The notes under the pieces were generated by a model that was not told the DNA's origin, did no database searches, and saw nothing but the letters and a program-made list of their open reading frames with translations. The position numbers and the translations under genes are program-made. Source: Escherichia coli (GTDB lineage Bacteria > Pseudomonadota > Gammaproteobacteria > Enterobacterales > Enterobacteriaceae). Taken from it: a DNA stretch of 33,046 bases. Below, piece after piece: positions 8,808-16,022 of this stretch. Numbering within the stretch: position 1 is the first letter of the stretch; every line of letters starts with the position of its first letter. The stretch lies in the NCBI RefSeq assembly GCF_003334815.1, contig NZ_QOWO01000041.1; one strand, 5' to 3'.

Positions 8808-11069
8808 TTACATCTGACGGTTTTTATTGAAGTTAATCAAACTACCCGCCTTGATAATCTCGCGCTCTTCAGCAGTCAGACTTTCCATATAGAGCGTAAT
8901 TTCCGTTACCGGCGCATCTTCATGGATCACATAACCTTTAAACGTCGTACCCGGATTATCCAGCGCCGCTTTAATGCCAGGGATGTAAATGTAATCCCCC
9001 ACTTCAAAGGTTGGTACTTCCGCCATTTGCAGCGGTAACATCCCCCAGTTGATGACGTTAGAACGATAGCGTTTAGTCGCGTACTCCTCGGCAATATTCG
9101 CCAGACCGCCAATCACACGCTGGCAGCTCGCCGCCTGTTCACGCGCAGAACCATCGCCTGGTTTCACCGCATAGACCATGCTGCCAATTTCAGTTTGCAG
9201 CGGATCAATATGCTCCTGACCAGCAATCTGCTTAATGCGCGCAAACACCTCTGTCAGCTCGCTGACATTCCCCGCCAGACGCTGATTTTCCAGCTCAGCA
9301 GTCGCTTTACTTCTGCTAACATAACCGGGATCGCGGCGAGACAGGGTAAACTCCGCCAGACCAATCGGATTTGAACGATAAGAAGAGGTTTCACCGGAAG
9401 GAATCAGTTCGTCGGTGGTGGTCACTTCGTCGAGGATCTTCGAGCACACTTTCAGGACGATATTGTCAGTCAGCGCACCCAATTCCGGCCAGTCTTTAAT
9501 GTTCGGCCCGTAAATCAGCGGTTGCTGAGTTGCCCCTTTCACAAAGCCCTGATAAACACGGTTTTTATACGGCGTTACATCGAAGGCGTACTCCGGCACG
9601 TTGTCCCAGCAATCAAGTTCGCTGGCAGAGGTTAAATAGCCACCGTTTGCCGCAGTCGCAGCGATAGAACGAGCGTCCATCAACGCCACCGCTGACATCT
9701 GCCCATTAGCTGGCTTAGAGCCTTCGCGGTTCGGGAAGTTACGCGTGGTGTGGCGAATACTCAAACCGTTGTTGATTGGCGTATCGCCCGCGCCAAAGCA
9801 TGGGCCGCAGAACGCGGTTCTGATGATTGCGCCTGCGCCAATCAAATCTGCTACCACACCTTTTTTGGCGAGATCCATAAACACCGGCTGTGATGACGGG
9901 TAAACTGCCAGCGAGAAGGTGTCATTGCCACAGGATTGACCGCGCAGTGCATTCGCCGCCGCGATGACGTTTTCGTAGTTACCGCCAGAACAGCCCGCGA
10001 TAATCCCCTGCTGCACTTTCAGGCGACCATTTTCCACTTTATCCAGCAGCGAGAGTTTGGCTTTACCGTGCGCCACGCGTTCGGACTCAATTTCAATCTC
10101 ACGCAGAATGTCGGTCAGGTTCTGGTTCAGTGTGTCGATTTCATACACGTTGCTCGGGTGGAACGGCAGCGCAATCATTGGTTTGATGGCGCTTAAATCA
10201 ACGCTGATGCAGCCATCGTAGTACGCCATCGGTTGAGGGTTAAGCTGGCAGTAATCCTGGCCGCGACCGTGCAGCGCCAGCCAGTTATGGACTTCTTCAT
10301 CGGTTTGCCAGACAGAACTTAAACAGGTCGTTTCAGTGGTCATCACGTCAACGCTGTTACGGAAATCGGTAGAGAGCGCGCTAACGCCCGGTCCAACGAA
10401 CTCCATGACTTTGTTTTTGACGTAACCGTTTTTGAACACCGCGCCAATGATAGCCAGCGCCACATCCTGTGGCCCCACATACGGCGCAGGTTTTCCGGTC
10501 AGATGCACCGCAACCACGCCCGGATAGTCGATATCCCAGGTGTCATTAAGCAGCTGTTTTACCAACTCACCGCCGCCCTCACCGACTGCCATTGTCCCTA
10601 ATGCACCGTAACGGGTGTGGCTGTCTGACCCGAGGATCATTTTGCCGCCGCCTGCCATCATCTCACGCATATATTGATGGATGACCGCAATATGCGGAGG
10701 CACAAAAATACCGCCATAACGCTGGGCCGCCGATAAACCAAAAACATGGTCATCACCGTTAATAGTGCCGCCGACGGCGCAGAGTGAGTTATGGCAGTTG
10801 GTCAGCACATACGGCAGCGGGAAACGTTCCATACCGGACGCTTTAGCGGTCTGTACAATACCAACAAAGGTAATATCGTGAGAGGCTAATGAATCAAACT
10901 TAATTTTAAGTTTATCCATATTTCCGGACGTATTATGCGAAGAGAGAATAGACCAGGCAATAGTGCCTTTTTTGGCTTCTTCTTTTTTAATTTCGCCGGT
11001 GAAATGTTCTTCGGCAATTATTTCGTTATTACTGGCGAGAAACACGCCTTTTTCAGATAACTTGATCAT
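8808..11069 (-). CDS. ybhJ: YbhJ, aconitase-family putative hydratase (753 aa)
   Basis: ORF 8808-11093 trimmed from GTG to ATG at 11069 ([10 protein letters not shown]...), which has a GGAG RBS 6 nt upstream. Large aconitase-like protein; gene order matches the ybhDHIJ cluster. Confidence 0.85.
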
Positions 11070-11251
11070 CAAATGCTCCAGATATCTGCGCACCGTGAAG
11101 TGCGCAGAAAGATAATAAATGGATATACTCTAAATAATTCGAGTTGCAGGAAGGCGACAAGCGAGTGAATCCCCAGGAGCTTACATAAGTAAGTGACTGG
11201 GGTGAGCGAACGCAGACGCAGCACATGCAACTTGAAGTATGACGAGAATAT

Positions 11252-12685
11252 TTACAGCATGTTCCAGCCGATCAGCATATTCCACCACCACACGCCGAGG
11301 GTGATATGCACCAGGAAGGTTAATATCGTCAGTACCGCACCGACCAACCACCAGGATTTAATATCGTTATAACCCACGCCAAAGATGACCGGACCTGCCG
11401 CGCCGCCATAGTGAGTAACCATGCCGCCATAGGAGTTGGAGAACAACAGTGCCAGCGCGGTTAACATTAACGGTGCGCCGGAGACGTTCGCCAGCATGGC
11501 AAATACCGGTAACATAGCAACGATATAGGCACTACCGGAAGCGAAGAAATAACGCACGATAATGCTGAGGAAAATAATAACGAAGAAAGCAACGTTACCG
11601 TGACCATCAAATGCCAGGTTATTTTTAAAGACTTCAGCTAACCATTCGAAGAATTTAACTTTCGATAATAAGGAGCTTAAGCCGATAATACCGCCGTACC
11701 AGATTAAGGTATTCCAGCCGCCTTTATTTTTAACCACGTCTTCCCAGGTAACGATACCCAGCAGCAGCATGGTTGCCATAACAACGATTGCCACGGTGGA
11801 TTCATCAACCCCCAGAGACTTACTGAAAATCCAGCCCAGCAGCGCCAGCACAAAGACACCGAGCAGCATTTTTTCGCGGATTTTCATCGGTCCTAGTTCG
11901 GCAAGGCCCGCTTTAGCGATGGTTTTGTTATCCACCTTCTTAATTTCTGGTGGATACATGGTGTAAATCACCAGCGGGGTGACCAGCAGCATAATGATGC
12001 CCGGCAATCCGGCTGCCAGCGCCCATCCACCCCAGCTAATTTGCAGGTGCAGAATGTCGTTGATCATTTTCAGCGCCAGAATGTTCCCCGCCATTGCGGT
12101 AAAGAACATATAGCTGGTGGTTTTGGTGACCATGTAAATGGACATCATCAGGTAATGTCCGACACGACGCGGACTTTTTTCCGGTTCGGACCCCAAAGCC
12201 ACCGCCACGCTGTTGATGATCGGTAACACAATGCCGCCCGCACGCGCGGTGTTAGACGGTGTTGCCGGAGCCAGTACCAGATCGAGGAATACCGTAACGT
12301 AACCCAGACCCAGCGTGGTGTTACCGATTTTACCAATCAGCAGATAGGCAATACGTTTACCTAAACCGGTGGTCACAAATGCGGCGCTTAAGGTAAACGC
12401 CGAGAACACCAGCCAGGTGGTACCTGAAGAGTAACCGCTTAATACGGCGGTGGTTTTAAACGCACCGTCGGATAAGTTACCGACCACCACCATTGAGGCA
12501 GCAACGGCAATTAACAGTACGACAGGTTCCGGGAAAGGCTTGATAACCAGCCCCACAATGGCCGCCAGGTAAATACCAAAAAGCACCCACGCCAGTTCGC
12601 TTAATCCTGCCGGAGCTGGCATAAAACCAATAATACATGGGATCGCTAATATCAGAATTAGCTTCCATAACGATTTCTTATTCAT
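11252..12685 (-). CDS. ybhI: YbhI, DASS-family anion (di/tricarboxylate-type) transporter (477 aa)
   Basis: Highly hydrophobic multi-pass membrane protein; length and position match ybhI. Confidence 0.9.
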   Translation of the reverse strand: MNKKSLWKLILILAIPCIIGFMPAPAGLSELAWVLFGIYLAAIVGLVIKPFPEPVVLLIAVAASMVVVGNLSDGAFKTTAVLSGYSSGTTWLVFSAFTLSAAFVTTGLGKRIAYLLIGKIGNTTLGLGYVTVFLDLVLAPATPSNTARAGGIVLPIINSVAVALGSEPEKSPRRVGHYLMMSIYMVTKTTSYMFFTAMAGNILALKMINDILHLQISWGGWALAAGLPGIIMLLVTPLVIYTMYPPEIKKVDNKTIAKAGLAELGPMKIREKMLLGVFVLALLGWIFSKSLGVDESTVAIVVMATMLLLGIVTWEDVVKNKGGWNTLIWYGGIIGLSSLLSKVKFFEWLAEVFKNNLAFDGHGNVAFFVIIFLSIIVRYFFASGSAYIVAMLPVFAMLANVSGAPLMLTALALLFSNSYGGMVTHYGGAAGPVIFGVGYNDIKSWWLVGAVLTILTFLVHITLGVWWWNMLIGWNML

Positions 12686-12760
12686 TTAAAATCCTGTTCT
12701 TTCTGTATGACTCATACAGAAGTCCTTTATTGATTGTCCTTATCCTGACAACGAATTTTT

Positions 12761-13813
12761 TCAGGGAAGATAAACTTCACCGGAAAATATTTTTCTGGTC
12801 GTCCGAATAACAGATGCGCGTAACGTCGTGGCATCCTGACCTTCATTACTTAAATGAACGTCGAGCGCACCACTGGGGTGTTCAATATTGATATTGCCGT
12901 ATCCTACAGAAGGGACGATTTGTCGGGTGACGGTGCCTTCCAATGCACAACTACTGGAAATAGCAATAGCACCGGTTATCGCCAGCGCGCGATGGCAAGA
13001 ATGCGGCATAAAATAACGCACATTAATTGCCCCGCCTTTCTGCGCTGGAGAAATAAGCACAGGTTTAGGGATAACCATATTACTGACATCACCTAAGCCC
13101 ATTGCTTTACCCGCTTGTAGACGGATAGATTCAATGCGGGCTAATAATGCTTTGTCGGCATCCAGTTCCGCCGGTAATTCATAACCTGTTTTTCCCAGAT
13201 ATTCAGCCGGAATAATGACGACTGGCATCGCCATATCGATACAGGTCACCGGGACATCGTCAAAATAATCAATCTGATTATCAGTCGGGAAAACTTTTCC
13301 GGTTTTGGTTCCAGCGGCATTCAGGAAAGTGAGCGCAACCGGTGCGGCAGTACCCGGTACGCCGTCAATTCTGGCGCTACCCTCGTACTCGACAACACCA
13401 TTTGGCGTTTGCACATCAGCTTCGATGAACGTACCCGTATTGACGTTGCGGATACGTACGCGAGTAACTGGCGAAGTCGCTGCAATCAAACCATTTTCAA
13501 TGGCGAATGCCCCAACACCAGACAGCATATTGCCGCAGTTAGGCGTGGTATCGACACGTTGCTCATGAACGATTACCTGCGCAAACAGATAATCGACATC
13601 AGCACGCGGATCGCTGGAACGGCTAATAATGGCGACTTTACTGGTCAGTGGATTACCGCCGCCAATACCGTCAATTTCCAGATCGTTACCGGAACCCATA
13701 ATTGCCATCAATATTTTATCGCGCTGCGTTTGATCTTCGGGTAAATGTTCCGCTAACAGGAACGCGCCCCTCGAGGTTCCACCTCGCATCATCACGCAGG
13801 GTATTTTTTTCAT
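12761..13813 (-). CDS. ybhH: YbhH, PrpF-family isomerase (350 aa)
   Basis: MKKIPCVMMRGGTSRGAFLL... has the PrpF/methylaconitate-isomerase-like N-terminus. Divergent from the LysR regulator ybhD. Confidence 0.9.
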   Translation of the reverse strand: MKKIPCVMMRGGTSRGAFLLAEHLPEDQTQRDKILMAIMGSGNDLEIDGIGGGNPLTSKVAIISRSSDPRADVDYLFAQVIVHEQRVDTTPNCGNMLSGVGAFAIENGLIAATSPVTRVRIRNVNTGTFIEADVQTPNGVVEYEGSARIDGVPGTAAPVALTFLNAAGTKTGKVFPTDNQIDYFDDVPVTCIDMAMPVVIIPAEYLGKTGYELPAELDADKALLARIESIRLQAGKAMGLGDVSNMVIPKPVLISPAQKGGAINVRYFMPHSCHRALAITGAIAISSSCALEGTVTRQIVPSVGYGNINIEHPSGALDVHLSNEGQDATTLRASVIRTTRKIFSGEVYLP

Positions 13814-13897
13814 AATAATGCCCTCAATTTAAAAACATAACTTATTGCGATATGGTTACATTAAGGGCAAAGCATCTCTAATGACTTTAGCTCAACG

Positions 13898-13920
13898 ATT
13901 AATAACATTTTTTCATTAAT
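13898..13920. promoter_or_regulatory. Candidate LysR-type (T-N11-A) operator in the ybhH-ybhD divergent intergenic region
   Basis: ATTAAT-N11-ATTAAT dyad at 13898-13920, between divergent ybhH and the LysR-family gene ybhD. Confidence 0.3.
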
Positions 13921-13996
13921 TTAAGTTGGCTAAATGCAGTTAAAATTTTTAACGGCCAGCCACCCAAAATCGTCGCTTCCATTTTCCGGAGTAATA

Positions 13997-14950
13997 ATGA
14001 AGCATGAATTATCAAGTATGAAGGCATTTGTCATACTGGCAGAGTCCAGTTCGTTTAACAATGCCGCTAAATTACTCAATATTACGCAACCTGCATTAAC
14101 GCGAAGAATAAAAAAGATGGAGGAAGATTTACATATTCAACTATTTGAGCGTACAACTCGCAAGGTTACGTTAACAAAAGCAGGAAAAAGGTTGCTCCCG
14201 GAGGCGCGGGAATTAATAAAGAAATTCGATGAAACGCTTTTTAATATTCGTGATATGAATGCTTATCATCGTGGTATGGTGACGTTAGCGTGTATTCCGA
14301 CCGCAGTATTTTATTTTTTACCGCTGGCAATCGGTAAATTTAATGAGCTGTATCCCAATATTAAAGTGCGGATTCTGGAACAAGGCACGAATAATTGCAT
14401 GGAATCGGTGCTGTGTAACGAATCAGACTTTGGCATAAACATGAACAACGTCACAAATTCATCCATTGATTTTACCCCACTGGTCAACGAGCCGTTCGTG
14501 CTGGCCTGTCGGCGTGACCATCCATTGGCCAAAAAGCAGCTTGTAGAATGGCAGGAGTTAGTGGGTTACAAAATGATTGGCGTACGCTCCTCCAGCGGCA
14601 ACCGACTGTTGATAGAACAACAGCTGGCCGACAAGCCCTGGAAGCTGGACTGGTTTTACGAAGTGCGTCATCTTTCGACGTCATTAGGACTGGTGGAGGC
14701 GGGACTGGGGATTTCGGCGCTTCCTGGCCTGGCAATGCCTCATGCGCCCTATTCTTCGATTATTGGTATCCCATTGGTGGAACCCGTTATACGTCGAACA
14801 TTGGGAATAATTCGCCGTAAAGATGCCGTACTTTCTCCAGCAGCAGAACGCTTTTTTGCCTTGCTGATTAATTTATGGACTGACGATAAAGACAATTTGT
14901 GGACCAATATCGTCGAACGCCAGAGACACGCGTTACAGGAGATAGGTTAA
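13997..14950 (+). CDS. ybhD: YbhD, LysR-family transcriptional regulator (317 aa)
   Basis: ORF 13934-14950 trimmed to ATG 13997 (MKHELSSMKAFVILAESSSFNNAAKLLNITQPALTRRIKKMEEDL..., N-terminal HTH) with GGAG RBS. Confidence 0.85.
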   Translation: MKHELSSMKAFVILAESSSFNNAAKLLNITQPALTRRIKKMEEDLHIQLFERTTRKVTLTKAGKRLLPEARELIKKFDETLFNIRDMNAYHRGMVTLACIPTAVFYFLPLAIGKFNELYPNIKVRILEQGTNNCMESVLCNESDFGINMNNVTNSSIDFTPLVNEPFVLACRRDHPLAKKQLVEWQELVGYKMIGVRSSSGNRLLIEQQLADKPWKLDWFYEVRHLSTSLGLVEAGLGISALPGLAMPHAPYSSIIGIPLVEPVIRRTLGIIRRKDAVLSPAAERFFALLINLWTDDKDNLWTNIVERQRHALQEIG

Positions 14951-14990
14951 TACACCGGCGCAGGAGAGACTGCGCCGGGTAAATCAGCGG

Positions 14991-16022
<1,032 letters not shown>

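Follow-up and report, generated by a model that had tools for sequence, protein, structure and literature searches.

The operator sites of BenM, a LysR-type transcriptional regulator (LTTR), are centred near -64, -43 and -22, and in the tricarballylate system of Salmonella, TcuR/tcuABC, the LysR regulator adjoins tcuA-tcuB. In the classical LTTR layout a regulatory binding site (RBS, or RS) lies near -65 and an activation-type site (ABS, or AS) lies over the -35 region (PMC11495319). BenM and CatM of Acinetobacter have classical RBS/ABS operators (RS, AS1, AS2) built on ATAC-N7-GTAT, i.e. a symmetric T-N11-A sequence located in a divergent spacer (PMC11495319). The sites of Nac, the nitrogen-assimilation LysR-type regulator (ATA-N9-TAT; published motif ATAagnaaaanttAT), are of the T-N11-A type too. 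PsrA of Serratia marcescens, an LTTR that forms tetramers and for which RBS and ABS sites have been reported, is the nearest named NCBIfam model (NF052633) to YbhD, the regulator considered here, and by sequence falls into the same LTTR subgroup.

The stretch of DNA that we analysed (the window, 33,046 nucleotides) is the ybhI-ybhH / ybhD-pgl region of E. coli. ybhD (13997..14950, plus strand) encodes a LysR-type regulator of 317 aa, and the divergent ybhH (12761..13813, minus strand), its regulated target, a PrpF-family isomerase annotated as 4-oxalomesaconate tautomerase. The two genes are separated by a spacer of 183 bp (13814-13996). Downstream of ybhH lies ybhI (11252..12685, minus strand), coding for a DASS-family anion symporter, followed by ybhJ (8808-11093), whose product is a hydratase of the aconitase family (NCBIfam PRK11413, 1541 bits). 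The ybhD start codon and its GGAG Shine-Dalgarno sequence (13988-91) are conserved in the spacer alignment described below. An in-frame ATG further upstream (13934) opens a 338-aa ORF, to which at least one O157:H7 record gives the name YbhD; as the 317-aa start at 13997, with its GGAG, is conserved in all homologues, the 338-aa form is probably a mis-annotation that would swallow the ybhD promoter region. Several E. coli strains carry IS1A/IS1B or ISVsa5 insertions within 12700-15000, with ybhD or ybhH annotated as two pieces, which indicates that part of the population has a broken regulator or target gene.

Control of the adjacent ybhH by YbhD is known from genetics. Expression of ybhH rises strongly in a ybhD deletion, and YbhD was proposed to be a repressor of ybhHI (Rodionova et al. 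2022, PMC9068703); neither a motif nor a binding site was given in that study, in which ybhD is up in threonine-supplemented M9. A 2024 review of LysR regulators lists the YbhD ligand and binding site as unknown and its targets as PybhH/PybhI (PMC11495319). The only published ChIP-exo experiment, performed with native-level myc-tagged YbhD in glucose M9, yielded one site, inside yihP near yihQ, with a S/N of 3.57 (Gao et al. 2021, PMC8464067), and no peak was called in the ybhH-ybhD spacer. The missing peak may reflect the very low expression of ybhD (baseMean ~10). The yihP/yihQ peak (NC_000913 4066599-4066632) was considered as a source of the motif and set aside as uninformative, since it is intragenic and contains no ATTAAT, TAATGA or dyad. 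We found no operator, EMSA or footprint in the papers mentioning YbhD that were consulted. The regulation of ybhH by YbhD is established genetically; the candidate operator described here is new.

A preceding sequence-only reading had drawn attention to an ATTAAT-N11-ATTAAT dyad in the spacer, placed it centrally between the divergent start codons, noted its T-N11-A architecture and named it as a candidate YbhD operator. The dyad is located exactly where it had been placed, at 13898-13920: ATTAAT at 13898-13903, AACATTTTTTC at 13904-13914 and ATTAAT at 13915-13920. Measured from its centre (13909), the start codon of ybhH is 96 bp away and that of ybhD 88 bp, which places the dyad roughly in the middle of the spacer. 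The T-N11-A architecture is indeed present, but it does not discriminate, for the AT-rich 183-bp spacer contains 23 instances of a bare T-N11-A; it is the symmetric arms alone that single the dyad out. The hexamer ATTAAT reads the same on both strands, which makes its two copies a direct and, at the same time, an inverted repeat.

The dyad is real and non-random. An exact ATTAAT-N11-ATTAAT is found once in the 33-kb window, with 0.03 expected, and shuffling of the whole window produced one such dyad in 3 of 100 cases. When the AT-rich spacer itself was dinucleotide-shuffled 2000 times, a 12/12 match of the arms arose with a p of ~0.0005; the next-best sites of the actual spacer score 10/12 and 8/12. 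The hexamer ATTAAT itself is not enriched in the window (15 copies vs 10.7 expected). An Rfam scan of 13600-14200 on both strands returned no match at E<=1 and so offered no indication of a structured RNA.

Conservation was examined in 17 loci from one-genome-per-species collections (Escherichia spp., nine Citrobacter, Edwardsiella hoshinae, Intestinirhabdus and Entomohabitans), whose YbhD proteins are 58-99% identical. The divergent ybhH-ybhD pair is kept in all of them. Among the 18 aligned Enterobacterales spacers, the right arm of the dyad (Box C; cATTAAT at 13914..13920, minus strand, where it reads ATTAATG) is invariant in its ATTAAT. The left arm (Box B; gATTAAT, 13897..13903, plus strand) appears in this alignment as ATTAAT, ATTAGT, ATTGAT, ACTGAT or GTTTAT, with T13903 invariant; ATTCAT is a further variant. 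The N11 spacing of the arms is found in 17 of the 18 spacers. A third TAATG-type element, Box A (CTAATGnC, here CTAATGAC, 13878..13885, plus strand), is present in 17 of 18 anchored lineages, and in the Escherichia-Citrobacter clade its distance to Box C is always 37 bp, start to start. Box A is a direct copy of the Box B core, located 21 bp nearer ybhH.

When 12 lineages are aligned without gaps and anchored on the dyad, the information content of the three boxes is 1.5-1.7 bits per column (Box A 1.5, Box B a mean of 1.5, Box C 1.74) vs 0.44 in the rest of the alignment, where 0.91 is not surpassed by any 7-column window. The 11-nt T-rich spacer between the arms (AACATTTTTTC) is weakly conserved (0.68 bits), its T-richness being partly kept. 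The recognition helix of YbhD (QPALTRR) is conserved across the homologues. The same picture emerges within E. coli, where the dyad is conserved well above the adjoining spacer DNA: the 55 bp containing the three boxes (13872-13926) are 100% identical in 5135 of 5339 matching complete genomes, whereas the adjacent 55 bp (13927-13981) are identical in 2188 genomes and in ~1330 are too diverged for a megablast match.

The sequence-only reading thus overlooked a third conserved box (13878-85), and the operator is probably larger than the dyad on which it had settled. Box A belongs to a weaker T-N11-A site, TCTAAT-N11-AACGAT (13877..13899; 7/12), the centre of which (13888) is 21 bp from that of the dyad; an activation-type (ABS) role for it is what its position would suggest. 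A different pairing, ATGACT-N11-ATTAAT (13881-903, 10/12), was considered as a second dyad sharing Box B and rejected, as only the ATG of its arm is conserved and the conserved unit is CTAATG.

Several of these loci have peculiarities of their own. In Citrobacter koseri NCTC10786 (contig positions 1248-3423), ybhH and ybhD align in shifted-frame pieces and are pseudogene-like. Its spacer retains CTAATGAC and ATTGAT-N11-ATTAAT despite the broken genes, which suggests that the gene decay is recent. The YbhD proteins of Edwardsiella (E. hoshinae and E. tarda) are 85-87% identical to that of E. coli, as close as those of Citrobacter, and the spacer is alignable; such closeness across a family boundary suggests that the ybhD-ybhHI module was transferred horizontally. 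A 509-bp contig in an assembly of Terrisporobacter mayombei codes for a protein 100% identical to residues 1-160 of E. coli YbhD, and it is almost certainly an E. coli contamination of this Firmicute assembly.

A protein search for more distant YbhD homologues (52-67% identity) provided 11 further loci for comparison. A divergent PrpF-family gene is present in 10 of them, and the gene beyond it varies (DASS, MFS or SDF transporter, OprD porin). The spacers of these loci are unalignable with that of E. coli. A perfect ATTAAT-N11-ATTAAT (p<=0.001 per spacer) occurs in Dickeya, Enterobacter, another Enterobacteriaceae locus, Salmonella salamae and Pseudomonas fulva; beside it, YbhD homologues are 54-60% identical to the E. 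coli protein in Dickeya, Enterobacter, the Enterobacteriaceae locus and P. fulva. Mangrovibacter and Serratia have the dyad with one or two mismatches. The loci of Dickeya, Enterobacter, Mangrovibacter and Serratia also have CTAATG(T/C)C, with its offset unchanged. In several lineages (Enterobacter, P. fulva and the marine contigs described below) the inverted repeat grows to 7 bp per arm, ATTAATG-N9-CATTAAT. The distance from the dyad to the PrpF/ybhH ATG is 89-102 bp, and to the LysR ATG 60-111 bp. A near-fixed distance to the PrpF start, as against a variable one to the LysR start, points to positioning by the target promoter.

The canonical dyad is absent from Klebsiella aerogenes and a related metagenome contig, both of which have ATTGAT-N11-ATAAGA in a 272-bp spacer, and from P. 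fluorescens, in which ATTATT-N11-ATGAAA is found instead. ATTGAT-N11-ATAAGA may be a diverged variant of the operator. In these two Klebsiella-type loci the ybhD-ybhH-ybhI module adjoins ispH/fkpB, not pgl. Klebsiella oxytoca has a 57%-identical YbhD homologue without a PrpF neighbour, a lactonase-family gene lying upstream across a 481-bp spacer, so the PrpF gene seems to be regulated by some, not all, members of the family. In P. fulva (contig positions 2288-4889) the LysR gene is placed between two PrpF-family paralogues, one divergent and one downstream, and the spacer has, closer to the LysR gene, further repeats resembling TTAATGCA (TTTAATGCACTAATC); extra sites are possible there.

Taken together, three sequence-level features of an LTTR operator were found: a symmetric T-N11-A core (12/12), a position in the divergent spacer between an LTTR gene and its target, with the same arrangement in 26 of the 27 homologous loci examined, and inheritance together with the regulator while the surroundings diverge. 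The candidacy of the dyad as a YbhD operator is therefore supported, the N11 dyad being kept beside YbhD-family genes whose flanking sequences diverge.

The search was also carried out in the reverse direction, by looking for CTAATG-N14-ATTAAT-N11-ATTAAT in metagenomes irrespective of the genes nearby. At least 120 matching stretches were recovered. YbhD and PrpF homologues flank at least 25 of the three-box matches (25/120 among the matches listed), and in the subset with a GC content of at least 0.45 the YbhD/PrpF pair accompanies 24 of 29 among the matches listed. The remaining 95 of the 120 matches listed have a median GC of 0.32 and no related genes, as chance predicts in AT-rich genomes.

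Three of the 25 pair-flanked matches (among the matches listed) are marine contigs with a GC content of ~0.57, which encode a LysR protein 35-37% identical to YbhD. In two of the marine contigs the flanks and spacers differ, and all three boxes are retained. The divergent operon in this lineage is tcuA-tcuB, a tricarballylate dehydrogenase system (both genes above the NCBIfam cut-offs), with a PrpF-family gene 4.5 kb off. The three-box motif lies at 11645-11740 of contig L084 (it is also present in L038 and L087), in a 78-bp LysR-tcuA spacer, the genes of this contig being located at 9209-11645 and 6101-7198; the marine dyad overlaps the LysR start codon. These contigs resemble the Salmonella TcuR/tcuABC layout in gene arrangement, a LysR gene adjoining tcuA-tcuB; their three-box motif lies in the tcuA-LysR spacer. 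Across all of these contexts, the gene of a YbhD-family regulator is the single constant neighbour of the motif. The marine tcuAB context hints that this regulator family senses tricarboxylates.

A scan for consensus sigma-70 promoters and terminators found no promoter within the spacer, so the positions of the promoters had to be deduced from conservation. On the ybhH strand, a TGn followed by [A/G]AnnnT, i.e. an extended -10 signature in which -11A and -7T are kept, keeps its position relative to the dyad in 16 of 18 lineages. In E. coli it reads TGT AACCAT (13852..13860, minus strand) and is a candidate ybhH extended -10, with a predicted transcription start site (TSS) at ~13845. Relative to this TSS the dyad would be centred at -64 and the weaker site at -43, and Box A would span -33 to -40. 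The conserved block in which the signature lies (ATGGTTACAT, 13852-13861) could alternatively be another regulator half-site. Two further readings of this block, made by eye, were discarded: a sigma-54 -24/-12 element (the spacing GG-N11-GC does not fit) and a CRP site (TGCGA-N5-TTACA is a misfit), neither of them being conserved. TTGACA, the complement of the Box A flank in the Dickeya-type loci, was likewise rejected as the -35 of the conserved TGn-rAnnnT element, from which it is ~24 bp away.

On the ybhD side, most Escherichia, Citrobacter and Edwardsiella rows of the alignment have TAAAAT, TAAACT, TACACT or TAGACT as the hexamer at 13941-46. TAAAAT (13941..13946, plus strand) is thus a plausible -10 of ybhD, with a predicted TSS at ~13953. 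Box C would then occupy -38 to -33 of that TSS, over the predicted -35 region, which would fit the expectation of negative autoregulation.

The predicted -64/-43 layout matches the classical LTTR model; it could be wrong, as it depends on predicted promoters. If ybhH had a long leader, the dyad could instead lie over the core promoter as a simple repressor site.

Compared with BenM and CatM, the ybhH-ybhD spacer likewise contains a symmetric T-N11-A site, a less symmetric second site 21 bp toward the target promoter and an overlap with the promoter (here a predicted one) of the regulator gene, and the predicted centres at -64 and -43 coincide with sites 1 and 2 of BenM. On the other hand, the half-site of YbhD would be ATTAAT(G), there is no recognisable third site, and genetically YbhD has been seen only as a repressor of ybhH. 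PsrA proved less instructive. YbhD reaches 257 bits and its homologues 262-316 bits against the PsrA model, the cut-off of which is 540, so that the proteins are paralogues, and the reported PsrA sites in the pig promoter (TGT-N11-ACA and ACT-N11-AGT) are unrelated to ATTAAT. For these reasons nothing is transferable from PsrA to YbhD, and it was rejected as a proxy for the DNA specificity of the latter.

Based on these observations, we suggest that the dyad is very probably the core of the YbhD operator, and that this operator would be better described as three boxes spanning 13878-13920. Window positions 13860-13940, which contain the boxes, correspond to ~800632-800712 of MG1655 (NC_000913.3). 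The half-site would be ATTAAT(G), and Boxes B and C would form an inverted repeat accommodating one YbhD dimer. Given its 12/12 symmetry and cross-lineage conservation, we propose the dyad (13898..13920) as the high-affinity regulatory binding site (RBS/RS) of YbhD within the larger three-box operator. Box A, two helical turns nearer ybhH, would be the conserved, promoter-proximal half of a weaker activation-type site (ABS/AS), engaged by the other dimer of a tetramer. Without the effector, a tetramer bridging the dyad and the proximal site would keep ybhH(I) off and limit the transcription of ybhD. Relief of repression or activation would follow when an effector, perhaps a tricarboxylate, moved the proximal dimer. 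We infer all four elements of this scheme, i.e. the binding of YbhD, the promoter positions, the geometry of the tetramer and the effector.

The AT-rich boxes might alternatively be core or UP promoter elements, or sites of nucleoid proteins (IHF, Fis, H-NS). The region is AT-rich, Box C coincides with the predicted ybhD -35, and the complement of the Box A flank is TTGACA in the Dickeya-type loci, all of which would agree with such a role. However, as a -10 hexamer ATTAAT would lack the -11A, and as a -35 it is a poor match to TTGACA; a strict N11 inverted repeat with 7-bp symmetric arms has the features of a dimeric-regulator site. Moreover, the LysR gene is the sole constant across loci with different targets, and the distance to its start is not fixed (60-111 bp), the marine dyad even overlapping the start codon. 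We therefore regard this explanation as improbable.

A marginally lower probability is assigned to the possibility that the dyad is also, or instead, a site of Nac. The inner part of the dyad, ATAACATTTTTTCAT, resembles ATA-N9-TAT and is the sole ATA-N9-[T/C]AT in the spacer (13902-16), and a Nac ChIP-seq peak was reported within the ybhH-ybhD spacer (Aquino 2017). This peak is, however, of the lowest tier (coverage 4, in a range of 4-851) and lies at ~13840 (approximately 13837..13851; U00096.2 799955, -27 from the ybhH ATG), which is outside the dyad and ~69 bp from its centre. The E. coli sequence within the dyad is ATA-N9-CAT, not the consensus ATA-N9-TAT, and it is not conserved in other genera. 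The YbhD dyad also differs from Nac sites in that its conserved bases are those of the outer ATTAAT arms, not ATA/TAT; the inner positions of Citrobacter (AGTGAC...), Enterobacter and P. fulva do not agree with the Nac consensus, and in Pseudomonas and the marine lineage the motif accompanies the YbhD-family gene. As it contains the only Nac-like string in the spacer, weak cross-binding of Nac at the dyad may occur. A stronger Nac peak (coverage 46) was reported at ybhI +21 (window position ~12665; U00096.2 801131) (Aquino 2017), which suggests that the transporter gene has a Nac input of its own or an internal promoter.

That the dyad is a functionless chance palindrome in AT-rich DNA, an idea to which the 3 positive shuffles in 100 and the ubiquity of T-N11-A in the spacer might lend some colour, is scarcely credible in the face of the cross-genus invariance, the recurrence in unalignable spacers, the outcome of the metagenome search and the conservation within the species.

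The preferred reading, a three-box YbhD operator centred on the dyad, describes an operator of an ordinary kind and leaves the general view of LysR regulator action unchanged. It supplies the exact bases for mutation or footprinting, and the motif (ATTAATG-N9-CATTAAT with CTAATG 21 bp away) can be used for regulon prediction in any genome. The neighbouring genes (the PrpF isomerase, the carboxylate transporters, the aconitase-family YbhJ and tcuAB) provide a shortlist of candidate effectors. In E. coli the combination of ybhJ of the aconitase family, a PrpF isomerase and a DASS transporter is more in keeping with a tricarboxylate pathway than with the 'L-malate-related' label used in the literature.

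More tentatively, and with rather more doubt than confidence, we put forward the idea that the three-box ATTAATG operator marks a widespread, undescribed LysR regulog for the uptake and conversion of tricarboxylates of the aconitate or tricarballylate type. If this is true, the regulog would span ybhHI(J) of E. coli, the PrpF-transporter pairs of Dickeya, Enterobacter and Pseudomonas, and the marine tcuAB operons, and YbhD would be a tricarboxylate sensor, the regulon and effector of which would be predictable from the motif.
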